From IMG/VR virus record IMGVR_UViG_3300048609_000070: 64,000 bases of DNA; one strand, given 5' to 3'. Under the pieces are notes generated by a model that was given only the letters and a program-made list of their open reading frames with translations, did not search any database and had not been told where the DNA came from. Below, piece after piece: positions 8,632 through 54,665 of the stretch (positions within the stretch are counted from its first letter, which is position 1; the number at the start of each line of letters is the position of its first letter). This DNA comes from a virus. The translations under genes were made by a program, and so were the position numbers.

Positions 8632-9690
8632 ATGCGAAAACTGGCCACAATTCGAAAGGTATTGGACATCAAGCCCATCCCAAACGCGGATAGCATTGAA
8701 CTCGCGATGATCGGGGGTTGGCAATGCGTCGTCAAAAAGGGAGAATTCAAAATTGGTGACTTGGGGGTCTACTTCGAAATCGATTCCTTTTTACCGATAG
8801 ACGCCCGGTTCGAGTTCCTTCGGAAGTCATCCTACAAGACCCTGGCTGATGGGTCTGAAGGATTCCGTCTGAGGACGGTCAAGTTCCGAGGAGAGCTCTC
8901 TCAGGGGCTCTTGATGCCCTTGAGCACGTTTCCGGAGATGCCTGTGGATACCTACGACGTGACCAGTGCGCTCCATGTCAAGCTCTACACGCCGCCCACT
9001 CCTGCGTGCTTGTCCGGGGACGTCGTAGGGCCATTCCCTTCGTGCATACCCAAGACGGACGCGGAGAGGATCCAGAACATCCCTGACTACTTTTCCACAA
9101 TGAAAGATGAAGAATTTGAAGTCAGCGAAAAGGTCGATGGCACCAGTTTGACATGTTATTTTTTGAATGGAAAGGTTGGAGTCTGCGGCCGGAACTGGGA
9201 GTTAAAAGAAGACATGCGAAATGCTTACTGGAAGATCGCAAGTTATTTTATTCCTGCAGTGAAGGAGCTCCATTTGAATATTGCACTGCAAGGGGAGCTC
9301 TGTGGGGAGGGCATCCAGAGCAACCCTCTGAAGTTGAAAGGACAGAGATTATTTCTTTTCCATGTGTACGATCTGGATGAGAGTAAATATTACATGCCTG
9401 ATCAGCGTTGGGAATTGTTTGAGAAAATAAAATGTGATGCGCTGGATCACGTTCCGCTTATCAGTAAAAGAGTGAAAGTTTTTCAAGAATTGGATACCAT
9501 GGAAAAGATGCTGGATTATGCAGCAGGAAAGAGTTGTGTTTGTTCGCAGATGGTAACTTCAAAGTCTGTCCAAAGAAGAGTCATGGTTCAATCCACGATA
9601 GAACGTGAAGGATTGGTTTTCAAGTCTTGGAGTCATCCAGAGATTTGTTTCAAGGCGGTGAGCAATACTTATTTGTTGGGTGAGAAGTGA
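8632..9690 (+). CDS. ATP-dependent RNA ligase, Rnl-like (DraRnl/NgrRnl-type N-terminal domain)
   Basis: 352 aa. Nucleotidyltransferase motif I KVDGTS (candidate adenylylated Lys in SEKVDGTSLT). N-terminal IRKV..I.PIPNADSIELAMIGGWQCVVKKGEFKIGD resembles the Rnl5-family N-domain. Confidence 0.6.
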   Translation: MRKLATIRKVLDIKPIPNADSIELAMIGGWQCVVKKGEFKIGDLGVYFEIDSFLPIDARFEFLRKSSYKTLADGSEGFRLRTVKFRGELSQGLLMPLSTFPEMPVDTYDVTSALHVKLYTPPTPACLSGDVVGPFPSCIPKTDAERIQNIPDYFSTMKDEEFEVSEKVDGTSLTCYFLNGKVGVCGRNWELKEDMRNAYWKIASYFIPAVKELHLNIALQGELCGEGIQSNPLKLKGQRLFLFHVYDLDESKYYMPDQRWELFEKIKCDALDHVPLISKRVKVFQELDTMEKMLDYAAGKSCVCSQMVTSKSVQRRVMVQSTIEREGLVFKSWSHPEICFKAVSNTYLLGEK

Positions 9691-16919: not shown

Positions 16920-18101
16920 TCAATATAGATCCCTTTCGTGTCGTTCTTTTATGACATCTTGGCATAGATCGTCCAAAAAATTGATGTCTGGAGACTTTGG
17001 AATAAACTTCAAATAAGATCCGCTCTGGTAGATGCTATCGAGCTCTGCTTCTATCGTATCTGCAAAGTCTATCAGTTCATTATACGTCCAGGCACCATTC
17101 CTAACTTCCAGTAACAATTTTGCACGTTCTTTGTCTTTAACGTTGAGTGTTCCTTTGGTTAGGATTTCCTTACATTGCATCATCAGCCGTACCAGATGAG
17201 CAGCGTGTTTGCAATCGTAGCTAAACTTTGCTTCTGACTCTGCCCTTTTTTTATTCCGTGTCAAAATCCAATTTTGGTACTGATTCCACTCTGTCAACGC
17301 ATTTCTATATTTCTTTTCTGCTTGCAGAACGACAATATAGTTTTCATCAAACTTGTACTTCTTCGATGCCGCAAGCTTTGCAAGCTCGAACAACTTTTCG
17401 CTATCGAGCATGGCAATCAGTGAGTTGCGATGCTCCATGGCAATTGCCATCATTTCCACGATTCCATCTTGGATAGAACTGACAATGCTCTTGTCAACTT
17501 CTGCTTCTTCGAGGAGCCACAGACGCGCCTGTTTCTCTAGCAAGCTCTCTGCAGCTCCTCGGTTCTCTGGAGAGATCAAGCCAACGTCAGGAAGTCCATA
17601 CTCCGACCTTTCTGGCTTATGCGTCGGAGGATGCATTAGCCAACGTCTGTGCGTATTGATTCTTTTGAGTTGCGCTCTGGCATAACCAGAAAAAGAAAAC
17701 TTGGCACGACCGGAGAGGAATTTTGTGGCGTTCTCTCGAACGGATCTTCCTGCTTCCGAGCAATACATTGTCTCGCTCGGATCGATAAAAAGAAGCTCGA
17801 TGATGCTTGGGTTGCACACTGCAGCCAATTTGAAGAACTTTCTGATGTCGTAGATAACGACGTCTGCCGGATCTTCTGAGCTGTTGTATATTTTTTTGTA
17901 GTCTTTTGGAAGCCAACGGAGATCCCGTGGAGTAATTTTTAGTTCTGTTTGCTCGAAGTTTTTGTGGAATGATCGGAAATAATCAACGGGTGGAATGCAC
18001 CAGCCACGGACATCTAAATCTGAGGTTTCTGTTGCCATTCCATAGGCGTGAGACCCGGCAATCACCAGATATTCTGTATGATCGAAAACGTCGAATTCCA
18101 T
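16920..18101 (-). CDS. Pol-beta superfamily nucleotidyltransferase, RlaP-like
   Basis: 393 aa. NTase motif GSHAYGMATETSDLDVRG (GS..G...SDxD). Paralog at 36071..36826. Confidence 0.5.
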   Translation of the reverse strand: MEFDVFDHTEYLVIAGSHAYGMATETSDLDVRGWCIPPVDYFRSFHKNFEQTELKITPRDLRWLPKDYKKIYNSSEDPADVVIYDIRKFFKLAAVCNPSIIELLFIDPSETMYCSEAGRSVRENATKFLSGRAKFSFSGYARAQLKRINTHRRWLMHPPTHKPERSEYGLPDVGLISPENRGAAESLLEKQARLWLLEEAEVDKSIVSSIQDGIVEMMAIAMEHRNSLIAMLDSEKLFELAKLAASKKYKFDENYIVVLQAEKKYRNALTEWNQYQNWILTRNKKRAESEAKFSYDCKHAAHLVRLMMQCKEILTKGTLNVKDKERAKLLLEVRNGAWTYNELIDFADTIEAELDSIYQSGSYLKFIPKSPDINFLDDLCQDVIKERHERDLY

Positions 18102-21229: not shown

Positions 21230-22560
21230 TCCTCCTAAAGAGCGCGCTCTTGGGCAAGGAGACTGCCGTCTTTAGGCAGCAGAGGAATTGCCATTTTCCT
21301 TTCTGTTAGGTATTGACACACACCAGAGAAGTATCTATACTTGACGCCATGAAGCTCGTTGCGAACATCAAGTTGAAACCGACGCAGGAGCAAGCAACTA
21401 TCCTCAAGCAAACCATTGAAGTATCCAACGAAGCCTGTAATTATCTGTCTAATCGTGCTTGGACCACGAAGACATTTGGTCAGTATGCCCTGCATAAATT
21501 GGCATACCGCGAAACCAAAGAAAGATTCAAGCTTACTGCTCAGGTTGTTGTACGATCTATTGCCAAGGTTACCGATGCCTATAAGCTGGATATAAAGACT
21601 AAACCGTACTTCAGGAAATATTCTGCTCAACCCTATGACGAACGGATTATTAGATTTTCTAAAGACGATATCGTTTCGATCTGGACTATTGCTGATCGTC
21701 AAAAGATACCGTTTGTGATGGGCGAGTACCAACGCAAGTTGTTTTTCTTCCGCAAGGGAGAAGTTGACCTGATGATGATCGACGATGAATTTTACCTTGC
21801 TTGCGTCTGCGACATCAAGGACCCCGAGCTTATCCAGACCAATGATATTCTTGGAGTAGACTTTGGTATAGTCAACCTTGCTGCCGACTCCAATGGGAAA
21901 AACTACAGCGGAAAAGCAATCAACAAGAACAGATGCAAATTTTCTCACCGCAGAAGAAATCTTCAAAAGAAGAAAACCAGATCCGCCAAACGGAAGCTTC
22001 GGGGTATGTCTAGACAGCAAGAACGCTTCCAGAAGGATACCAACCACGTAATCTCGAAAGCAATCGTTGCAGATGCTAAACGCACCGTCTCTGCTATCGC
22101 TCTTGAGGATCTTCGCGGTATCAGAAAACGGGTAACGGCCAGAAAGCACCAGCGGGCGCGGTTGTCGAACTGGGGCTTCGCCCAGTTGCAAGCCTTCGTG
22201 ACGTACAAAGCGAAGAAGATGGGAATACCCATTATTCTTGTAGATCCTAAGAATACTTCTCGGGAGTGCCCTAAGTGTGGACATATCGACAAGAAGAATC
22301 GAAAGACAAGGGATGAGTTCGTTTGTATCAAGTGCGGTCTTGCTGGACCCGCTGATACAATTGCGGCATGGACAATTCGTTCCAGGGCCAGGGCTGCTGT
22401 CAATCAGCCGATGGTTTCGAGTGTTTGTGCAAGCTTGCATGACCTCTCAGAAACAAGCCGCCCGCTTTAGCTGGCGGTTATTGACAACCAACAGGTTACT
22501 CCGTTTTCTTCGGGCTGTCAAGCACTTTTTTCGGCTATCCGCGATCTGGTCCCGTCTTTT
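21230..22560 (+). mobile_element. IS605-family (IS1341-like, tnpB-only) insertion; ends approximate
   Basis: tnpB flanked by hairpin-rich subterminal sequences. Candidate omega-RNA region with hairpin CCGCCCGC...GGCGG at about 22470-22560. Lies between rmlC and rmlD. Confidence 0.5.
21313..22470 (+). CDS. tnpB: IS200/IS605-family TnpB (RNA-guided nuclease), catalytic motifs intact
   Basis: 385 aa. RuvC-I ILGVDFGIVNLA. RuvC-II AIALEDLRGIRK. Zn finger CPKCGH...CIKCG. RuvC-III PADTIAAWTI. Confidence 0.85.
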   Translation: MTHTREVSILDAMKLVANIKLKPTQEQATILKQTIEVSNEACNYLSNRAWTTKTFGQYALHKLAYRETKERFKLTAQVVVRSIAKVTDAYKLDIKTKPYFRKYSAQPYDERIIRFSKDDIVSIWTIADRQKIPFVMGEYQRKLFFFRKGEVDLMMIDDEFYLACVCDIKDPELIQTNDILGVDFGIVNLAADSNGKNYSGKAINKNRCKFSHRRRNLQKKKTRSAKRKLRGMSRQQERFQKDTNHVISKAIVADAKRTVSAIALEDLRGIRKRVTARKHQRARLSNWGFAQLQAFVTYKAKKMGIPIILVDPKNTSRECPKCGHIDKKNRKTRDEFVCIKCGLAGPADTIAAWTIRSRARAAVNQPMVSSVCASLHDLSETSRPL

Positions 22561-23594: not shown

Positions 23595-24062
23595 TTAGGA
23601 ATTCTTCAGTAGATCAATGAGCTTTTCTGTTACCACGAAGTTGAATTCGTCGTAATATTTTACGTCCGTCACTGTTGTACGTTTGCTATGTTGATCTATG
23701 GATAGACTGGTTTTTCCTTTATTTGTGTGGAGTATTAAGAAGAACGTGTGATTACTAAAGATGAATTTAATCGACGTAATCCAGACATAATATGAAATTG
23801 CCCGTTCTACAAATGTAATGAATTCTGTAGGGATGTCACTTTGCGTTTGTTTTGTGGCGTCAGAAAGATAATCAAAAAATTTTTTTAGATTCTGCTCTTT
23901 GTCTTGGGTGAGATCACAGGTATTTTTCAAGAGTTCCTCCTTTGCGGGTACTAACGATGACGGTGATTCTAAATACGAAAAAGGACATGTCAATCCTGAA
24001 ATCTTTCGGATGTGTTGGGAAAAGTCGAATCGACCGACAGCACACTGGCAGTTAGAAGACAA
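23595..24062 (-). CDS. hypothetical protein
   Basis: 155 aa ORF. Confidence 0.4.
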   Translation of the reverse strand: MSSNCQCAVGRFDFSQHIRKISGLTCPFSYLESPSSLVPAKEELLKNTCDLTQDKEQNLKKFFDYLSDATKQTQSDIPTEFITFVERAISYYVWITSIKFIFSNHTFFLILHTNKGKTSLSIDQHSKRTTVTDVKYYDEFNFVVTEKLIDLLKNS

Positions 24063-24479
24063 TGCTGATAAAGCCGAAAGTGATTAGTCTGTATACTGAG
24101 TGGGATCACGACGTTCGAGACATTGGTGTCCATTCTTTATTTTTCTTGTACGTGATTTTCAACCTGCGTCCGTTTGTGGACGTCCTACCGTCCAGGGCCT
24201 TCGTCCGCCATCCCCCTTTGAAAAAACCTTTATGCTAGTCCTCTGGACCCCCACCCATGATGGTGGACCTTGTTGATGTGTCCGTCGAGATCATGACGTC
24301 CTGGATCATCTCATCGTGGCAGCCTAGTCTAGAGGGACGGCTAGACAGGGCTGTCTGTAACATCGTAATACAGCACCAGAGGTTGTCGCCGGTCACGCCA
24401 ACCGACGACGAGGGACATCCTCCGGGATCGAAGGGTCGTCTAGAGCCTTCAGACTGTATTGTAGCGATGTTCTCTGGGA

Positions 24480-24790
24480 AGTCAACTTAAATTTTTGGCT
24501 GGTCATGATCTATTGTCCCCGCTTCCAGTACTCCCGGTCCCGCAATCTGATGGAGCAGTGGCGCTGTCCCAGGTCCTATACCTGTGTCGCAGCATCGTCC
24601 CTGTCTATGTTTCGCCGGGTCTCGTCCCTGTGTGTCCCGTATGTCACTGGTGGTCCCGTTATGGCGTCTTCAGCCCGCCGAGCGTACAGTCTAGTCCGAG
24701 AGCTCCTTTTAGTATGGGTTGTCCCACCGGTTGATGTCTCGGTTCGTCCCAGACCGAAGCCTTCAGTTTGTCCCTTACACGTCCCTGTCT
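24480..24790. repeat. GTCCC-motif array (about 12 copies at 10-30 nt irregular spacing) downstream of the Cas12-like gene
   Basis: GTCCC recurs (GTCCCCGC.., GTCCCGCAAT.., GTCCCAGG.., GTCCCTGTC.., GTCCCGTATG.. etc.). The plus strand is pyrimidine-rich. No convincing ORF. Confidence 0.6.
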
Positions 24791-27700
24791 CAACCTAAAC
24801 TTTGATAACTTTTTGCTTCGACTGCTTTCCAGAAGACCGCGGCTTGAACCCACACGCTCGGGTCGAAGAATGTTCCGGAGGGGTCACGGAAGAGGACCAT
24901 CTTGTTTTTCTCGTTGATTTTGACATCTATCTTTTTTGTAGCCATCGCCGTGTACGTCCCATTACCGTCCTTCTTGAAAAATTCAACAGCATCACTCTTG
25001 AAGTGTCCCTGCAGAATTTTTCCGAGCTCCAGGTTCAGTAGGTGTCCGTCTGTCTCGTATGCCACAGCGCGTACAGGATTTGCACTCCCTGTCAAATAAT
25101 TCATACCGTGATTTTGAGCAGCGTTGACGTCAACGTGGATCCGTGACCCGTCGCTTGTGACAAGGTATGGCCCTCCAGGAACTGGAATCAAATCCCGTCG
25201 CTTCAGCTGTAGCAAGTCTAGCTTAGCCTCTTTTACGAATGGTCGGAGCCAATGTCCTTGCGTTTGGATCGCATTTACTTCCTCGTCACTCTTTATTTCG
25301 TAGCATGCAATCCCTGGCGTTCTTGTCCCAGCGCTAAAGATTGAGGAGAAAGCAACGGGTGCTTTGCCAATGGCAAAGCCTTCGGCTTTGGCCCTTCGTT
25401 CGATTTCTTGTGCAATAGAGCGGTGACTCCATTGTGCAAGACGGACGTTTTCCTCAAGGTCCTGATCCTCGGTGATTCTATATCGTGTCAAGTCACCGAG
25501 GACGATAATATCCACAGGAGTATACGTATGACTCCAACTTTTATTTGAATAGGTATTTCCTTTTGCCGCCTCAATTATAAATGCTGTGAGCGTCTTGATC
25601 CGATCCATCTTCAAGTTCTGGATATGGACCAATAATCGAGATGCTACCACGCCTTGGGTAGACTTTTCCATCCGGCGAACTGGATAGTCAGGGCGAGAAT
25701 GCCGATCCCACGCTCTGATGAGATCTCGCGTTTTCTCCAGATAAGCAATCCGCCATATGGACTTTCCTCCAAGAGTCATCTTCTCCTGTCGCCAATCGTG
25801 AATATCCTTGGCGATGCGTGTTTCCTCCTCGAAATAGATTGGGCGCATGATTCGTTCCCAATTCTCGTGGGGGCAACCATATAGGATGCTCAACTCTCTA
25901 TGCACATCTTTATCGAGCTTTCCTCTCATCCCATTGAGGAGCTCTTTCCTTACTTCAGGATCTTGTGTCCCGTGCAATTGCCTTAAACCTGATAGTTTAT
26001 CGAGTTCCCTCCCAATGCGCCATAACCGCTCTTGCGCTTCCTTGCGTCCTTCGATCGCTTTCTCTGCGGGCATACGCAGCAAAAACGTCTGCTCATGGTG
26101 GATCTTGTGCCCTTCGACAGACCATAGCGGGTCTGTGCTTTTTTCTGCCCCGACCTCGAAAATTGAGCATGTGGCTGACACTCTAATGCCCAGGTGGACT
26201 GCCATGATTCGAATGCCAGGGACGATAGGAGATTTTTTCTCCGCAGATCTTGTAATTTTGCTCTTTGAAAGATACCTTGCAATGTCTCTGCGATCGACCG
26301 TAGGAATTTTTGTCTTGTGCTCCTCGGTCTCTACATTGACCGAGAGCATCAAGTAGGCCATGGCTCCGGGTCGTCCATCTCGGAGCTTCCAGGCACTTGT
26401 CGGATCGGACACGAATCGAGGTGATAAGATGAGAGACGCTCCTCCGGCAATGCTGACTTTTCGTTGGATATTGTCTTGCGATTCATACGATAGATACTGC
26501 TTTTTCTTGTCGTCCCACATTTTGAGCAGACGCAATTGGTATGTTGGTGCAATCTGGAAAAAGAATTTACGAATGCAGACCCCATCTGAATCCTTAGAAA
26601 ATAACGGCAGATCTACACAGAGTCCCTGTTCATTTTGTTTGAGCGTATAAGGCGGGTTGTTTCGATTTGAAAGTCCCGAAAATAGGGTGAATCTCGGATG
26701 GGTCTCTGCATCCGGAAAAGTGAGCATTGGGAGTTCTTTTGCTTCCTGAATCTTTTTTAATACCTTGTTTTTCTTTGCCCAATGAAAAACAGCATCCGGG
26801 TCGTCGAAGGCTTCTTTGGCGAGGTCAAGTAAGATGGTGGATCCGTGGTCCCCAGCTTGTACAATTCTTTCTCTTTGGTCCGTGATACCTTTAAGCTTTT
26901 TCCAATTTTTTATCTCTCGCTCAGTGATGAGATAGGCAGATTTTTCTGCCCAATTTCCAGCTCTTTTGATCTGTTCTTCCCTTTTCTGTTCAATACAGAT
27001 CAGAGTCTGCGAGTCCCTTTCGCTATACGGATTTCCTAATTTTTCCAGTTCTGCCTCTAGATCTTGTGTCCGTGCTGTGAGATTATGCCGCCAGCTTTCC
27101 CAGGAATTGAGATGTCCAACGGCGAGGGTGAAAGCCATACGCTCGTAGGCTTGCAGAGCTGTGGTCCCTAAAATGTCAAAGAGGAATGGATCAGCAAGTG
27201 GAAGCGCCCCGAGTGAACGGATCTCGCTCACCAGCGAATCCATTATCAATTTTTCTTTATTGGATGCAACGTACTTTGTTGCTGCATCTTTCCAGCCGGG
27301 ATCTCCTGTCTTGAACAGAGTCAGCCAATGTGCTTCCCTGCCGACTGAAGGTCCCATGAAAAGGGAATTATTCTTGATCTGATCTTCCAGGTTGGATTCA
27401 CTATCCATTATTCGCTGGAGGGTCCGAACGAGATTTGCCGCGTGAGATCCTCCTTGGGATTCTTTCTGCACGAGGAGGCCCTGGTAGCCTCGGACTTCAT
27501 CGGCAGATCCAGAGCCGCCCTCGCGGTAGGACTCGACATAATAAGGATAGAGCTCCTTTAATAAGGAGCAGCATCTATCAATATTTTTTACTTTGCGTTC
27601 CTTGAGCTTTGCCTGCAATCGGGACGTCCATTCGGAGCCCGGGACAGTCTCTTTTTCGAGCCGGACGTCATCCTGACGAATGGTCACGAGCATCTTTTCA

Positions 27701-27813
27701 TAGAAACGCACCATGTCGTTCACGATCTGATGCGTATACGCTAGAGCTCTTGCCCCATCAGTATTGGATTTTCTTGGAACGTGAAGTTTTAATCGTATAG
27801 CTCTTGTGTCCAC
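24790..27813 (-). CDS. Cas12b (C2c1)-like type V effector homolog, predicted nuclease-dead (GTG start)
   Basis: 1007 aa. RuvC-I region IMAVHLGIRVSATCSIFEV matches Cas12b ..SVDLG.R.SA..SVF.V but has His in place of the catalytic Asp. RuvC-II IIVLGDLTRY compared with Cas12b ILLEELSEY. Cas12b-like RLAQWSHRS. FSSIFSAGTRTPGIACYEI compared with FSSRFDARTGAPGIRC. RuvC-III HVDVNAAQNHG is retained. RBS GAGGGAG upstream of GTG. Confidence 0.75.
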   Translation of the reverse strand: MDTRAIRLKLHVPRKSNTDGARALAYTHQIVNDMVRFYEKMLVTIRQDDVRLEKETVPGSEWTSRLQAKLKERKVKNIDRCCSLLKELYPYYVESYREGGSGSADEVRGYQGLLVQKESQGGSHAANLVRTLQRIMDSESNLEDQIKNNSLFMGPSVGREAHWLTLFKTGDPGWKDAATKYVASNKEKLIMDSLVSEIRSLGALPLADPFLFDILGTTALQAYERMAFTLAVGHLNSWESWRHNLTARTQDLEAELEKLGNPYSERDSQTLICIEQKREEQIKRAGNWAEKSAYLITEREIKNWKKLKGITDQRERIVQAGDHGSTILLDLAKEAFDDPDAVFHWAKKNKVLKKIQEAKELPMLTFPDAETHPRFTLFSGLSNRNNPPYTLKQNEQGLCVDLPLFSKDSDGVCIRKFFFQIAPTYQLRLLKMWDDKKKQYLSYESQDNIQRKVSIAGGASLILSPRFVSDPTSAWKLRDGRPGAMAYLMLSVNVETEEHKTKIPTVDRRDIARYLSKSKITRSAEKKSPIVPGIRIMAVHLGIRVSATCSIFEVGAEKSTDPLWSVEGHKIHHEQTFLLRMPAEKAIEGRKEAQERLWRIGRELDKLSGLRQLHGTQDPEVRKELLNGMRGKLDKDVHRELSILYGCPHENWERIMRPIYFEEETRIAKDIHDWRQEKMTLGGKSIWRIAYLEKTRDLIRAWDRHSRPDYPVRRMEKSTQGVVASRLLVHIQNLKMDRIKTLTAFIIEAAKGNTYSNKSWSHTYTPVDIIVLGDLTRYRITEDQDLEENVRLAQWSHRSIAQEIERRAKAEGFAIGKAPVAFSSIFSAGTRTPGIACYEIKSDEEVNAIQTQGHWLRPFVKEAKLDLLQLKRRDLIPVPGGPYLVTSDGSRIHVDVNAAQNHGMNYLTGSANPVRAVAYETDGHLLNLELGKILQGHFKSDAVEFFKKDGNGTYTAMATKKIDVKINEKNKMVLFRDPSGTFFDPSVWVQAAVFWKAVEAKSYQSLG

Positions 27814-27839
27814 GGATTTCTCACTCCCTCATTTATTTG

Positions 27840-28365
27840 GTCTCTTTTACCGTATCTGCATCAGTATTCCTTTGTCTCTAGCTTCTTTGTCGTGCTCCGG
27901 ACATTGCGTCTCGTTCTCTTTCTGTCTCTTTTTTCCGTTGGGCTGTTCGACCCGTCTCTTATCGTAGTAAATTTTTATCACCTGTCTCTTTTTTCTTTTG
28001 TTTCAAGAGGTCTCTTTTTTCCATCTTTTGTACGATAATCTACTGGTTGTATGCCGCCACGCCAGCGACATACGAGAGACATCCAGTAGGCCCCCTGGGT
28101 CGTGTAGAGCCAGGTTAGTAGATCGTACTTTATATCTCTGAATTTCAAAGAACTCTGCGCGAGTATTGTATCTTTCCCATCCATTGCCTCGTCTGTCTCA
28201 CCCCAAACCAAAAATCGCTTTCGTGTCTATTTCCGTTTTCCTCGATGTCTCAGTCCCAGCAACAACCGGCTGGGGACACGTCTCATTATTCACTCGTAAC
28301 ACTAGGCTCCAGTCTCTTTTTCGCTTTAGAGTAGAAGTTCTCATCCGGTCTCGTAATTGCCGTCT
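27840..28365. repeat. GTCTC-motif array 2 (about 18 copies; extended form GTCTCTTTTT(T)C) between the promoter and the Cas12-like start
   Basis: The plus strand is almost pure pyrimidine except G in GTCTC. Motif spacing 14-45 nt. No stop codons on plus only because of A-depletion. Transcribed on the minus strand from the promoter at 28374-28401. Confidence 0.65.
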
Positions 28366-28373
28366 CAGTATCA

Positions 28374-28401
28374 ATTCTAGCATGCCCACTTTTTTTGTCA
28401 A
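28374..28401 (-). promoter_or_regulatory. consensus sigma70 promoter (minus strand): TTGACA-16nt-TAGAAT with AT-rich UP region
   Basis: RC of 28374-28410 reads AATTAATTTTTCTCTTGACAAAAAAAGTGGGCATGCTAGAAT. Near-identical to the promoter at 30343-30370. Confidence 0.6.
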
Positions 28402-28618
28402 GAGAAAAATTAATTTACCGTAGGTTGAGTTTTTCCATGCGCGATGTCCTCGTCTTTTTCCTTCTCGTCTCTTTTTCTTTTCTCCATGCCGCGAAGCATA
28501 ATGTGCTTTTTTATGATCTCCTGCTCCTTCCTAGACCAGTAATGCTCTCGCATATGCCAGGCAATCCACAGAAGGATTGAGAAATGAAACAGCATGTTAA
28601 AGAAAGATTCCCACGAGG

Positions 28619-29395
28619 TCATGTGTTCCTCTCTGCTTGCATAGGGTCTCTTTGCATCCTCTCCAGCAGTCCGTAATATGCGGAGGCTAATCCACATTGG
28701 TCGCAAAGTTGAGTGAGTCCGACAGTCTCTATGATACTTTTTGTGCTTTCAAAAACACTCCCAATTTCCGTGCAGCTAGAGCATTCTCCGATTCTTATTT
28801 TTCCATTGACATCGATCATAGGAGAACACATTTTTCCAATTCTTTGTAATGTTCGGATCATAGTAACAAAATTCGCTTCCCGGAATTGCAATGCGAAAAG
28901 ATGAACGTTAGCGCAATGCGGAAAAACACGTTCACTTTTTGTATAGTTCTTTTTTGCTCGTCCTAAAAGTGTGATGCTAATCCCATCCTCGAAAAGTTGA
29001 GTGTTGGGGAGAGTCTCTAGCTTGAGATTTGCATGTATCACATGATAATTGGGGTAATATTTTGGGTGCGTCCTGATTTGCAAGCGTATGTTGGTAGTGG
29101 TCAGAAGATCCAACATATTGCGGTATTTTTCTTGGTCTGTATAGAACGAACCGTTACTCTGGATCATGATATCAGATTCAGGGAATACTTTACTGACGAT
29201 CTTGGCCCATGAAAAAAAGGAAGGGTGAAGTGTCGGTTCTCCACCTGTAATCTGGATTAAAATCGGTTTGACCTTCCGCAGCAATTTTAATGTAGCTGCA
29301 AAAGTCTTTTGCTCCATGTGCTCCCCGGAAGGATTTGCATCCTCCATGCAATGCGAGCAATTTTCAAGGCATCGGTTTGTAATTTTTACGAGCAT
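28619..29395 (-). CDS. radical SAM enzyme with C-terminal extra Cys cluster (twitch/SPASM-like)
   Basis: 258 aa. CxxxCxxC (CLENCSHC). GGEP motif (ITGGEPTLHP). C-terminal CSPM...GECSSCTEIG...CDQCG. Confidence 0.7.
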   Translation of the reverse strand: MLVKITNRCLENCSHCMEDANPSGEHMEQKTFAATLKLLRKVKPILIQITGGEPTLHPSFFSWAKIVSKVFPESDIMIQSNGSFYTDQEKYRNMLDLLTTTNIRLQIRTHPKYYPNYHVIHANLKLETLPNTQLFEDGISITLLGRAKKNYTKSERVFPHCANVHLFALQFREANFVTMIRTLQRIGKMCSPMIDVNGKIRIGECSSCTEIGSVFESTKSIIETVGLTQLCDQCGLASAYYGLLERMQRDPMQAERNT

Positions 29396-29399
29396 GGGT

Positions 29400-39540: not shown

Positions 39541-41390
39541 GGGCTGACGGGTTCATCCCGTCAGTCCCCTGCCACACCACCGGACATGCGGGTCCGCATC
39601 CGGCGGTTCGGTAGGTTGAGGTTATGCCGCAAGCCTCGGTACTCCTTGTCGGTCGTAGTAGCTCGTCGGCAGCGCAGTGTTCAACAGCTTCGCGGAATTG
39701 CACCACCAGCGGCGTGAGTTCGCGGCCACCCGCCGGGCGGCCTGGTCATTCGCTCCAAGCCGCTTCATCTCCCGGTAGATGGTCTTCCCTCGTATCCACT
39801 GTTTGAGCTGTATCATCCGCAGACGATGGCGTATCCATTCGTCGAGATTCATGAAGATGCCAGGCGTCTCGGCCAGGCGGAAATACCCTTTCCACCCAAG
39901 CAGGTAAGCCCGTAGCTCCGCGAACACCCGATTCATGCTCCGCCCTCGACTCCGGGTCGTGATGTCCCGGACCCGCTGCTTCATCGCTTCAAGGGCTTTT
40001 GGCGCCACGCGCCGCCGGACGACCTTTCCCGGGGCTACCCAGAAGCTGTACCCCAGGAACTTCCTTTCCCACGGTCGTGCCACCGCGCTCTTCATCTCGT
40101 TGACTCGCAGCCGTAGTCGCGCGTACAAGTCCCGAAGGGCCCGCATCACACGCTCGCCAGCTCGCTGCGACCCAACGTACACGTTGCAGTCATCAGCGTA
40201 GCGGACAAACGCATGCCCACGCTTCTCCAGCTCCTTATCCACTTCGTCGAGGAGCACGTTCGCCAACAGCGGTGAGAGAGGGCCGCCCTGCGGCGTCCCC
40301 TCGTACCGCTCCGTTGCCACCCCTCCCGCCATGATGCCGGCTTCGAGGTAGCGCCGGATGAGCCCCAGCATCCGCCTGTCTCCAATGCGCTTCTCCAGCC
40401 TCCCCATCAGCACGTCGTGGTTGACCCGGTCGAAGAACCGCTCCAGGTCCACGTCCACCACCACCCGCCTCCCTTCCTGGACATACCGCTGCGCTTCGCA
40501 GACCGCGTCGTGTGCGCTATGCCCGGGCCGAAAGCCGTGGCTGTGCTTCGAGAAGGTCGGGTCGAACATCGGTTGCAGGACCTGCAGGATGCTCTGCTGG
40601 ATGAACCGGTCGAGCACGGTTGGGATGCCAAGCTTTCGCACCCCGCCCCCGCTCTTCGGTATCTCCGCTTCCCGCACCGGTTTCGGCTGGTAGGTGCCTT
40701 CGAGCAGCTGCGCTCGAGTCGCCTCCCAGTGTTCAATCAGGTGCTTCGGCAGCTCGTCGACGGTCATCCCGTCCACACCGGGGCTGCCCTTGTTCTGCCG
40801 TACCCGCTTCAACGCCGCCTTGGCATTGCCGCGCTCGACCACCCGTTCCATCAGGTGGTCGATTCCTGAGCGCTCATCTCCGTTCGCCGCCGTCGGGGTT
40901 TCGCCGCTCCGTTGGGCCCTCGGGGCTTCACCCCTGCCTCCCAGCGGTAGCTCCAGCTGATTGGACTTCTGGCGCCTGACCCTTCCGAGACTCACGGTTG
41001 CCTCGCTCTCCCTTCCGTTCGGCCCTTCGCCGTTGCCGGCTACTATGGCCTCTGCTGACTTCTCGGTCCGGCTTTGTGCCGTCGCCCTTTCAGGCGTGGG
41101 CCGAGATCTCCTCAGGTAAGGGTTCATGGACTTCGCCGCACAGCCGCCGGATTTACGTCGTCTGACTCTTGGTCGCGAGGGCTTCGCGGTCCTTTGCCCG
41201 CTCGCCCTTGTCGACGCCGCCTTGTATCCGGTTCTTGTTCATCGGCTCGCGGCTTCACTACCCGCTTCTTTCAGCGCCGGCCTCGCGGCCGGACCGGTCT
41301 CCCGGCTTGCCGCCTTGCGGTTCGTGTGGGTCGCTGCGACCAACTCCCCAGGGGACTTTCACCCCCTGTCCATTCCCATGCTGAGCACAC
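39538..41390 (-). mobile_element. bacterial group II intron (about 1.85 kb); boundaries approximate
   Basis: 5' end GUGUGCUCAGCAUGG... at RC of about 41390. Domain V-like hairpin CCGCCGGATGCGGACCCGCATGTCCGGTGG and domain VI GGGGACTGACGGGATGAACCCGTCAGCCCC near 39541-39620. IEP in domain IV. GC about 62% against a flank of about 38%. Confidence 0.8.
39622..41127 (-). CDS. ltrA: group II intron-encoded reverse transcriptase/maturase
   Basis: 501 aa. RT motifs: GIPTVLDRFIQQS. GFRPG.SAHDA. YADD in FVRYADDCNVYVG. Maturase X domain. Confidence 0.9.
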   Translation of the reverse strand: MNPYLRRSRPTPERATAQSRTEKSAEAIVAGNGEGPNGRESEATVSLGRVRRQKSNQLELPLGGRGEAPRAQRSGETPTAANGDERSGIDHLMERVVERGNAKAALKRVRQNKGSPGVDGMTVDELPKHLIEHWEATRAQLLEGTYQPKPVREAEIPKSGGGVRKLGIPTVLDRFIQQSILQVLQPMFDPTFSKHSHGFRPGHSAHDAVCEAQRYVQEGRRVVVDVDLERFFDRVNHDVLMGRLEKRIGDRRMLGLIRRYLEAGIMAGGVATERYEGTPQGGPLSPLLANVLLDEVDKELEKRGHAFVRYADDCNVYVGSQRAGERVMRALRDLYARLRLRVNEMKSAVARPWERKFLGYSFWVAPGKVVRRRVAPKALEAMKQRVRDITTRSRGRSMNRVFAELRAYLLGWKGYFRLAETPGIFMNLDEWIRHRLRMIQLKQWIRGKTIYREMKRLGANDQAARRVAANSRRWWCNSAKLLNTALPTSYYDRQGVPRLAA

Positions 41391-43770: not shown

Positions 43771-44811
43771 CTAGGCTAGGTTTGCTAGTGGCTTACCTAA
43801 CTTCAAAGGCGTTTGATGTCCCAAACGGAGTATGTTTTGAGCCGCATTAATATCGCGACTGTGAGTTTGCCCACAACTCTCACAAGTCCATACTCTTACG
43901 GAAAGGTCTGTCAGATCCTTCGGCCCCGACCTTTCCAGGCATTGACCACACGTTTGCGTAGTATATGCTTCGCTGACCAAGTGGAAGGCACCTTGCCGTC
44001 TACTGACCTTATATTCAAGGAGCCTTATCAGTCCTCGGTAAGCAGTATCATTGGTAGATTTACCACTTTGCAACTTCAAATCACCAACATAGATTTCTTG
44101 GTAAGTGCTGGCTAACTTGGTGGATATCTTATGGAGGTTATCCTGACGTTGACGCTGAACCTTACGAGCAAGATGCTTATGTTGCTTAGACTTTCTAAAC
44201 CGTTGGAGATTACCTAGCTTGACTACGCTTTTTCGAAAGCATTTAGGATTGTCAAAGACTTCTCCGTTAGAAGATACAGCAATACTGTTTAGTCCAAGGT
44301 CGATACCTACATGCACAGAGATTAGTGCTTTGGGTAGCAACTCAACCTCGCAAACCAATGTCAAATACCAATCTCCACAAGCATCTTCTACGAAGCTCCC
44401 TGTACATACTTTTCCTTCTAGTTCACGGGATTTGAAGAATTTGAACCAAGTACCATTGAACTTTACTTTATTATCTTTGACCTTGATAGAAATTGCCTTG
44501 AAAGGAATCCATCCTAAAGACTTCCTTGTGCGCCACTTTAGTTTACGACGGCATGTTTGTTTGCGAGATTTAGCATAAGTTTCATCGATTGCCTGTATAG
44601 TAGTAGCAGGTATCTTTAGAAGTTTACAGGAACCAGCAGTCAGGTTGTTCAAGTCAAATCCGGTTAGGAATTTATAGTGAGATTTAATCGCCTTACAGGA
44701 AGTTTCGTTGTCGTAGTTCCAGACAAAGTTAACTTTGGAAGCAGCTACGCGCAAGTGGCGCAGCTTGGAACGCGAAAGTTTGAACTTGTAAGTCGTATAC
44801 ATAACGTTCAC
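43771..44811 (-). CDS. tnpB: IS200/IS605-family TnpB homolog with non-canonical RuvC-II (GDL in place of EDL)
   Basis: 346 aa. RuvC-I VGIDLGL. RuvC-II position reads EIYVGDLKL. Zn finger CGQC...CESCG. RuvC-III SRDINAAQNIL. Hairpin CCCCGCCTTGAAAGACGGGG about 20 bp downstream of the stop. Confidence 0.8.
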   Translation of the reverse strand: MNVMYTTYKFKLSRSKLRHLRVAASKVNFVWNYDNETSCKAIKSHYKFLTGFDLNNLTAGSCKLLKIPATTIQAIDETYAKSRKQTCRRKLKWRTRKSLGWIPFKAISIKVKDNKVKFNGTWFKFFKSRELEGKVCTGSFVEDACGDWYLTLVCEVELLPKALISVHVGIDLGLNSIAVSSNGEVFDNPKCFRKSVVKLGNLQRFRKSKQHKHLARKVQRQRQDNLHKISTKLASTYQEIYVGDLKLQSGKSTNDTAYRGLIRLLEYKVSRRQGAFHLVSEAYTTQTCGQCLERSGPKDLTDLSVRVWTCESCGQTHSRDINAAQNILRLGHQTPLKLGKPLANLA

Positions 44812-53960: not shown

Positions 53961-54665
53961 CTATAGCCTCGTCAAAAATTCTTCGTTTGGAGCGTTGTTA
54001 ATTGCGAAGTCCGCAGATGGCACGGAAATATCAGCTCCGCACCGTGGACATTTTTTTGCTCCTGCTGCAAACTCTTCAGATTCAATTCCGCAAAACGGAC
54101 AAGCATGGACGAAACTATCTGGATTTCTCTCAGATGGTTGATAGGGACCAGCAAAAGCGTCTGAAATAAGCTTGATTGCCGCATGAAGATGCCGCATGCT
54201 ATTTTTTTCCATTGTTTTTTCTCCAAGCTCTATCCAGCACTCCGGAGCTTTAAATATTTTTCCGTAGTCTTGGAAGATCTCCAGGTTCCCTTCCTCGTCA
54301 TCGATAAAAACTAAATCTTTATGATCTTTTAGTTTATTTTCTACCATTGACTTTTTGAATTTGGAAGGAGGGGTATGATCGTCCCGTAAAAATAAATGGT
54401 CATTGTCTACGTCAAAATCGTAATGCTTCTTGAGCCAATCCTTTGTTGTTTCCCTTAATGTTTCTCTCCTTCCAGAAATAAAATAAACATCGTCAAAGAT
54501 CTTTGTCATTTTAGGAAGGACTTTTTGAGCTTCTGGAAAAGGAGAATCTTTTTCTACCATGTCCGGAGAAAAAAAGGCGTCCCAATCTGGTTTTTCACAT
54601 TCAACAAGATGAGCACGATGGTCCGTGTTAGCGAGTGTCCCGTCAATGTCAAGGACAAGAATCAT
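53961..54665 (-). CDS. HAD-superfamily phosphatase (PNK-phosphatase-like) with C-terminal zinc ribbon
   Basis: 234 aa. Motif I LVLDIDGTL. C-terminal CPFCG...CPRCG. Confidence 0.6.
   Translation of the reverse strand: MILVLDIDGTLANTDHRAHLVECEKPDWDAFFSPDMVEKDSPFPEAQKVLPKMTKIFDDVYFISGRRETLRETTKDWLKKHYDFDVDNDHLFLRDDHTPPSKFKKSMVENKLKDHKDLVFIDDEEGNLEIFQDYGKIFKAPECWIELGEKTMEKNSMRHLHAAIKLISDAFAGPYQPSERNPDSFVHACPFCGIESEEFAAGAKKCPRCGADISVPSADFAINNAPNEEFLTRL

Follow-up and report, generated by a model that had tools for sequence, protein, structure and literature searches.

A radical S-adenosylmethionine (SAM) gene lies in a 64,000-nucleotide stretch of the IMG/VR virus record IMGVR_UViG_3300048609_000070 (the whole stretch analysed here, which we refer to as the window), placed between two promoter-headed, GAGAC-rich leaders and followed on the same strand by a homologue of Cas12b. 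This arrangement raises the question of whether the enzyme is a working part of an RNA-guided system or a separate gene that is regulated alongside it. We favour the latter interpretation, to which we assign a probability of roughly 70%: that the gene encodes a functional radical SAM enzyme of the twitch/SPASM class which acts alone and belongs to a phage family with an accessory or counter-defence role, and that it is co-regulated with the Cas12b homologue without being part of the same machine.

The gene (28619-29395, minus strand) runs from an ATG at 29395 to a stop at 28619-28621, and encodes a complete protein of 258 residues that begins MLVKITNRCLENCSHCMEDANPSG. Residues 4-100 match the Pfam family Radical_SAM (PF04055) with 38.5 bits, above the gathering threshold of 29.5 (E 1.7e-9), and the protein has the features that define this family, namely a CxxxCxxC motif near the N-terminus, a GGE motif, and the beta/alpha pattern in a predicted model; the core can be aligned to at least 20 solved radical SAM enzymes. 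The codons for C9-x3-C13-x-H15-C16 at 29348-29371 (minus strand) specify the predicted ligands of the SAM-cleaving [4Fe-4S] cluster, and these positions are 94-98% conserved among 177 sequences and invariant in a family alignment (A1). The SAM-binding 'GGE' motif is part of G51-G52-E53-P54-T55 (29231-29245, minus strand), where G51 and G52 are 100% and E53 99% conserved. In the public JGI annotation the window protein is called as P0001, with 242 aa on a contig of 136,545 bp. That call begins at M17 and thus omits the Cys triad; because M1 and L2 are invariant across homologues, we take the longer open reading frame (ORF) of 258 aa to have the correct start, and the empty precomputed Pfam field of the public call is probably due to its M17 start, which leaves it without CxxxCxxC. 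We conclude that the enzyme is encoded by a real and intact gene.

Relatives of the protein were found by two routes. A word-indexed search returned 35, all between 150 and 280 aa and all metagenomic, and an exhaustive profile search returned 482 clusters (50% identity) at E<=1e-30; of the first 150 clusters, almost all are 219-288 aa long and full-length. The one long member (P0066, 386 aa) was considered as a possible domain fusion and rejected, as the gene caller appears to have merged an upstream ORF and the radical SAM part has its own MLVKIT start. We determined conservation in an alignment of 177 family members, whose identity to the window protein is 23-46%. The positions conserved in at least 85% of these are C9, C13, H15, C16, M27, GGEPT, H57, P58, N81, G82, Q106, Y114, G145-R146-A147, C161, N163, C190, P192, G198, E204, C208, G212, C231 and C234. 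Every one of them is kept in the window protein, which is therefore very likely to be active. Of the C-terminal cysteines, C161, C190, C208, C231 and C234 are each at least 99% conserved, with C205 the exception.

The family appears to be essentially restricted to large and huge phages. Among deposited phages, tBLASTn finds relatives in a 462-kb uncultured phage (LR756500.1, 41% identity) and in Bacteroides phage BS-TP1 (gp91), and IMG/VR contains 41 full-length family loci, many of them on contigs of 100-470 kb. The metagenomic loci have small co-oriented genes in phage-like runs. The restriction to phages is suggested by a scan of 185,579 bacterial and archaeal genomes (one per species), in which each of the 80 best matches is confined to the N-terminal 81-188 residues and none is full-length; these 80 are other radical SAM enzymes.

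What kind of radical SAM enzyme this is can be addressed through a predicted structure. An AlphaFold2 model built from a 27-sequence alignment has a mean predicted local confidence (pLDDT) of 93.5 and a predicted template-modelling score (pTM) of 0.89, and Foldseek comparison gives template-modelling (TM) scores of about 0.5 to EpeE, BtrN (246 aa), SuiB and SpeY. The nearest structures overall are EpeE, SkfB, SuiB, BtrN, viperin and SpeY, all of which except viperin are twitch or SPASM enzymes, and the model resembles solved enzymes of these two kinds more than other radical SAM classes. When the family profile was compared with all PDB sequences only residues 5-113 aligned, with EpeE/YydG the best match (E 5.5e-11), and the same region gave the alignments to GDGT-MAS, SkfB, viperin, PqqE and MoaA.

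In the twitch layout, as described for the SkfB structure (PMC6231123), Cys residues are located before and after a beta-hairpin (CX9-15GX4C), and are followed by a helix and a further Cys. The C-terminal part of the window protein contains six cysteines, C161, C190, C205, C208, C231 and C234, and the region from C161 to C234 (28694-28915, minus strand) has a twitch-like pattern and predicted topology: C190-x12-G203-x4-C208 fits CX9-15GX4C, the model has hairpin strands at 199-201 and 210-213 and a helix at 218-227, and C231-x2-C234 follows. C161 is an extra Cys upstream of the pattern, and G203 is nearly invariant in the closest members; a few members have S or A there. The protein does not contain the seven-Cys SPASM pattern CX2CX5CX3C, the second half of that motif being missing, and the five conserved C-terminal cysteines are compatible with one cluster plus one spare Cys. 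The enzyme is thus very probably of a minimal twitch type with one auxiliary cluster, the binding of which we infer from the Cys pattern and the model.

No curated radical SAM subfamily in Pfam, NCBIfam, PHROGs or PADLOC fits the protein, and the matches obtained are generic and confined to about 100 N-terminal residues. In NCBIfam they include ArsS (46 bits, cutoff 300) and HxsC (45 bits, cutoff 268); the SPASM and maturase models there all score 15-46 bits against cutoffs of 250-850, and Pfam gives no match to SPASM (PF13186) at E<=0.1. A sequence-only reading of this stretch had proposed a radical SAM enzyme with CxxxCxxC and GGEP motifs and a C-terminal multi-Cys region suggestive of an auxiliary Fe-S cluster. 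Both motifs and the multi-Cys region are borne out by the Pfam match and by the conservation described above, and the auxiliary cluster, predicted from conserved cysteines in a twitch layout, gains enough support to be considered very probable. The same reading had called for a search with hidden Markov models of the radical SAM subfamilies, and had allowed that the enzyme might prove to belong to a housekeeping one; that search was run, and no curated subfamily, housekeeping or otherwise, matched. We regard the protein as a previously uncharacterised member of the known twitch/SPASM kind, notable mainly as belonging to a large phage-only family.

In the surroundings of the gene all elements lie on one strand, arranged, in the direction of transcription, as a vault-repeat protein gene, promoter P2, array A, the radical SAM gene, promoter P1, array B, the Cas12b homologue and array C. 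P2 (30343-30370, minus strand) is a promoter-like TTGACA-N16-TAGAAT that agrees with the consensus at 11 of 12 positions and heads the leader of the radical SAM gene. This leader, array A (29396-30342, minus strand), consists of 947 nt of non-coding DNA with 27 GAGAC motifs spaced irregularly at 5-101 nt, and is purine-rich on the sense strand (A 39%, G 29%). A gap of 217 nt (28402-28618) separates the radical SAM stop from P1 (28374-28401, minus strand), which is again TTGACA-N16-TAGAAT, with a TG extension, and heads a 560-nt leader (array B, 27814-28373, minus strand) with 13 GAGAC motifs in front of the Cas12b homologue. Array C (24515-24787, minus strand) directly follows the stop of that gene and contains 14 G[AG]GAC motifs (11 GGGAC and three GAGAC), each of them sense-oriented; this third array does not figure in the sequence-only reading. 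Beyond it lies a further promoter-like site, TTGACT-N16-TACAAT (24485->24458). Counted as GTCTC on the given strand, and thus as GAGAC on the gene strand, the motif occurs 27 times in 29412-30310 and 14 times in 27840-28471, always in a single orientation, the 14th copy of the latter group being located at 28471, upstream of P1.

There are three TTGACA-N16-TAGAAT-type sites in the window against 0.06 expected, and P1 and P2 outscore every other promoter match in 24000-33700. The window has 21 copies of GTCTCTTT where 4.07 +/- 2.31 would be expected, with 17 of the 21 copies within 27840-30313 and one (28646) inside the radical SAM coding sequence. The P1 and P2 modules have a 34-nt promoter repeat in common, and arrays A and B a 27-nt segment with 93% identity, from which we conclude that the promoters and leaders of the two genes are paralogous by sequence.

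Several other interpretations of the arrays were considered and rejected. Arrays A and B are not CRISPR arrays, as they contain no long repeat and have irregular spacing (5-105 nt), and the 'spacers' match the rest of the window only at the chance level for 13-mers. Nor are they coding sequence under an alternative code: both leaders have stops in all frames and no alternative genetic code gives an ORF, all three stop codons being present in every sense frame but one, and the exception, which is without TAG, has 13 other stops. A pattern scan of IMG/VR for analogues of the arrays yielded only chance matches or tandem coding repeats. A match to GTCTCTTT on an unrelated viral contig (L197 7096-9390, plus strand) is a tandem coding repeat within a 764-aa ORF. 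A 23-nt array segment has no match in the metagenome contig collection, Rfam gives none in the radical SAM/array locus, and the 727-nt region 3' of the Cas12b homologue shows no unusual folding (z = 0.32).

The Cas12b homologue itself (24790-27813, minus strand, 1007 aa) is the next gene downstream, with the radical SAM gene 805 bp upstream of it and motif arrays on both of its sides. It was identified with NCBIfam (NF033949, 310 bits, cutoff 150) and PADLOC (Cas12b, 432 bits). Alignment to AacCas12b indicates that the RuvC-I residue D570 is replaced by H (MAVHLGIR) and the RuvC-II residue E848 by G (VLGDLT), while D977 is kept; because two of the three RuvC catalytic residues are lost, the protein is probably nuclease-dead, and we refer to it as dCas12b. 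Its nearest relative among 5.8 billion proteins is 25% identical, and none was found in IMG/VR. Since dCas12b has no close relatives in the collections searched, co-occurrence of the two genes can be tested from the radical SAM side only.

We performed a census of 48 other family loci with up to 10 kb of flanking sequence, together with three loci of the closest clade with shorter flanks. A Cas12b homologue is present in none of the 48, and in none of the three closest-clade loci. TnpB is present in three of the 48 at varying distances, once beside a resolvase as in IS607-type elements, and recurrent co-occurrence of the kind expected of a type V-B accessory gene is thus absent. The 1 kb upstream of the radical SAM gene contains 27 GAGAC motifs in the window versus 0-2 in the other loci, in most of which the gene lies within 60 bp of its upstream neighbour. 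The sequence-only reading had described the gene as the only one between two promoter/array modules and immediately upstream of a dCas12b-like gene. We find no other supported gene between the modules, and the neighbour has proved to be a Cas12b homologue that probably lacks nuclease activity. The further proposal, that the enzyme could be part of the RNA-guided system and modify array RNA or DNA, is not supported by the comparison of homologues with Cas12/TnpB-like genes that the same reading had suggested (0/48 for Cas12b, 3/48 for TnpB, and no more than two GAGAC motifs).

There is nonetheless a case to be made for a single system, in which the enzyme would be a working part of the dCas12b/GRGAC-array module and modify array RNA, the GTCTC DNA motif or the Cas12b protein. 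The elements from P2 to array C are tightly arranged on one strand, no terminator is predicted between the radical SAM stop and P1, the two promoters and leaders are paralogous, and the locus is a singleton, so that close relatives offer no counter-example. We consider this improbable in view of the other family loci, which are without Cas12b, without GAGAC arrays and without a conserved neighbour; the family-level evidence argues against a functional dependency on Cas12 or the arrays. A narrower version, to which we give similarly long odds, is that a twitch enzyme was recruited into the RNA-guided module of its own phage lineage, where it would modify array RNAs or the GTCTC motif, or act as an effector controlled by dCas12b. 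If true, it would be the first case in which a radical SAM enzyme is linked to a system of the Cas12 type. The evidence for a link to the module is one of position and of a shared type of promoter and leader in a singleton phage. Because its promoter and leader are paralogous to those of dCas12b, the radical SAM gene is probably co-regulated with dCas12b rather than part of one machine with it, and it could be a regulated cargo of dCas12b. The oddity of the locus is the apparently dead Cas12b with three GRGAC arrays, not the radical SAM enzyme.

We also examined whether some other gene travels with the family. In a Pfam census of 150 neighbours no family occurs more than three times. All-versus-all BLAST clustering of 49 loci places DUF2829/Tad2-like proteins in nine and RtcB, within 10 kb of the radical SAM gene, in six, and reveals no widely common neighbour; jackhmmer searches with candidate partners give a Tad2-like protein in eight non-redundant loci and a cytidylyltransferase-like protein in three. 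An ORF cluster present in 16 loci was discarded as an artefact, being antisense to and inside the radical SAM gene. Neighbours include AcrVA2-like, NUDIX and glycosyltransferase genes in one context and, elsewhere, NrdD, GyrB, a deoxynucleoside monophosphate kinase and an adenylosuccinate-synthase-like gene. In the closest clade, the radical SAM gene is 2-7 kb from genes of the isochorismatase family (possibly nicotinamidase) and of the CTP_transf_like family (possibly of the NMNAT type) at L292 250-4915 and L293 690-3810, and L292 additionally carries an NAD synthase gene nearby. These NAD-related genes may constitute a phage NAD-salvage set, seen in three to four loci and not as a conserved partnership.

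The same neighbourhoods bear on the possibility that the enzyme matures a ribosomally synthesised and post-translationally modified peptide (RiPP), acting like EpeE/YydG, SkfB or SuiB on a small phage-encoded substrate. At about 250 aa, with the radical SAM core starting from residue 1, the protein has no room for a RiPP-recognition element. Among small ORFs beside the gene (25-140 aa, same strand, within 800 bp), none is common to more than two loci; no larger neighbour is conserved, and the flanks in the window are non-coding in all frames. We regard a peptide substrate of this type as unlikely.

Still less probable is a viperin-like or other nucleotide-modifying enzyme, which would make a modified nucleotide from an NTP for DNA or RNA modification, or for host poisoning or evasion. 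The NCBIfam viperin model (NF038283) reaches only 25.4 bits against a cutoff of 180, over residues 5-98, and PADLOC pVip 31 bits over residues 4-98, leaving the C-terminal part unmatched. Viperins are without an auxiliary cluster, whereas the family has five conserved extra cysteines, and the Pfam neighbour census contains no conserved kinase or nucleotide-pathway partner. A housekeeping-type function as QueE, MoaA, an RlmN/Cfr methylase or a glycyl-radical activase of the NrdG/PflA type has in its favour weak N-terminal matches to MoaA, NrdG and QueE-like models and one homologue about 2 kb from an NrdD gene, but is effectively refuted by the low scores of these matches (MoaA, 32 bits, cutoff 284; NrdG, 20 bits, cutoff 131; phrog_2076, E 0.0074 with no significant stretch; PDB QueE, E 0.002 and N-terminal only), by the lack of QueC, QueD and DpdA families among the first 25 neighbour families listed in the Pfam census, and by the lack of a full-length similarity to RlmN/Cfr that takes in their N-terminal domain and methyl-carrying Cys pair.

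We thus return to a stand-alone twitch enzyme of phages, for which a mechanism can be proposed. C9, C13 and C16 would coordinate the [4Fe-4S] cluster at which SAM is reductively cleaved to give a 5'-deoxyadenosyl radical, and four of C161, C190, C208, C231 and C234 would bind a single auxiliary [4Fe-4S] cluster, the domain being a minimal twitch. After abstraction of a hydrogen atom from the substrate, one possible outcome is dehydrogenation with the auxiliary cluster taking an electron, the chemistry of BtrN, SpeY and anSME; the other is EpeE-type epimerisation, for which the fifth cysteine, not needed by the cluster, could give a hydrogen atom back. The family travels alone through variable accessory regions, often with anti-defence, RNA-repair, nucleotide or NAD genes nearby, and because it is partner-less and located in such regions the substrate is most likely a ubiquitous host or phage molecule, such as a nucleotide, a nucleotide-sugar or cofactor, a nucleic acid or a host protein. 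Its role is most likely in host takeover or counter-defence. In the window, expression would be driven by the gene's own sigma-70-type promoter through the GAGAC-rich leader of about 950 nt.

Several points weigh against this interpretation. The proposed chemistry, whether dehydrogenation or epimerisation, is extrapolated from enzymes whose folds match with TM scores of only about 0.5 and whose identity is 11-19%. The auxiliary cluster is predicted from conserved cysteines and modelled topology, and the Pfam SPASM and NCBIfam twitch models give no significant scores. The suggestion of counter-defence is one of guilt by association: in accessory regions this dense in genes, nearly any kind of gene lies close by, and no neighbour family exceeds three in 150. 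Finally, as the phage has no sequenced relatives, independence from dCas12b is not demonstrable for its own lineage.

The rest of the window is an accessory region of the same kind as those at other family loci. The gene preceding P2 (30392-32899, minus strand) ends 22 nt before that promoter and encodes an 835-aa MVP-shoulder/vault-repeat protein (PF11978, 70.5 bits; PF17795, 38.7 bits); such a domain is unusual in a phage-like element, and the protein has no PHROG match. An Apyc1-like protein of the metallo-beta-lactamase fold is encoded at 33661-34374 (plus strand; PF23023, 44.6 bits, cutoff 50; phrog_392, E 3.7e-34), and is possibly a cyclic-nucleotide-degrading anti-defence gene. A group II intron at 39622-41292 (minus strand) has a reverse transcriptase/maturase ORF (RVT_1 and GIIM) and Rfam matches to D1-D4, with a GC content of 0.64 versus about 0.42 nearby. 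Two TnpB-type ORFs (OrfB_IS605 plus a Cas12f1-like TNB domain) are located at 21313-22470 (plus strand) and 43771-44811 (minus strand), and the first is overlapped by a 401-aa antisense ORF (21235-22440) that is probably spurious. A scattered set of RNA-repair-type genes encodes an RNA ligase, two RlaP-like nucleotidyltransferases and a PNK-like protein (8632-9690, 16920-18101, 36071-36826 and 53961-54665), and other genes encode HsdM, a DHH phosphoesterase, a thymidylate kinase, a primase and a DNA methyltransferase. The window is compositionally mosaic, with GC at third codon positions (GC3) ranging from 0.30 to 0.78. Cumulative GC skew in 2-kb bins rises to about 24 kb and then falls steadily, the turn coinciding with the dCas12b/array region even though genes on both sides are mostly on the minus strand.

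Little work has been done on the radical SAM enzymes that phages carry. Hundreds of sequence clusters from large phages contain this small enzyme (about 250 aa, two predicted Fe-S clusters), which is not full-length in any of the 80 best matches from cellular genomes; this points to an infection-specific function, with nucleotide, cofactor or macromolecule chemistry that serves takeover or counter-defence as plausible roles. Because no dedicated partner gene is needed, the enzyme should be easy to test by expression and substrate screening. At this locus, it is best treated as a gene that has the promoter and leader type of the dCas12b module, and possibly its regulation.

Comparison with known systems places both the neighbour and the enzyme. 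Like the TldR proteins, phage-encoded and nuclease-dead RNA-guided regulators derived from TnpB, dCas12b is phage-borne and apparently RuvC-dead, although we note that this is a comparison of context only: dCas12b is a full-length protein of the Cas12b type (1007 aa), with irregular GRGAC arrays instead of a single guide scaffold. To our knowledge, described TldR loci include no radical SAM component. Viperins and pVips are host defence genes, in contrast to the phage-encoded family described here. The peptide epimerase EpeE, with a chain of about 320-344 aa, acts on an operon-encoded peptide, and is larger than the window enzyme of 258 aa; relative to EpeE/YydG, SkfB and SuiB, the family loci are without adjacent conserved peptide or transporter genes, and the NCBIfam model rSAM_yydG (YydG) scores 27 bits against a cutoff of 300. 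Among the closest known systems are the minimal twitch-domain radical SAM dehydrogenases SpeY and BtrN, the latter being the butirosin 2-deoxy-scyllo-inosamine dehydrogenase. The window enzyme is only 12-15% identical to these two, and BtrN is not among the matches of the PDB profile search; the family also has five conserved C-terminal cysteines rather than four. BtrN and SpeY are encoded in bacterial antibiotic biosynthetic clusters, whereas the enzymes of this family are carried by phages, outside any such cluster.

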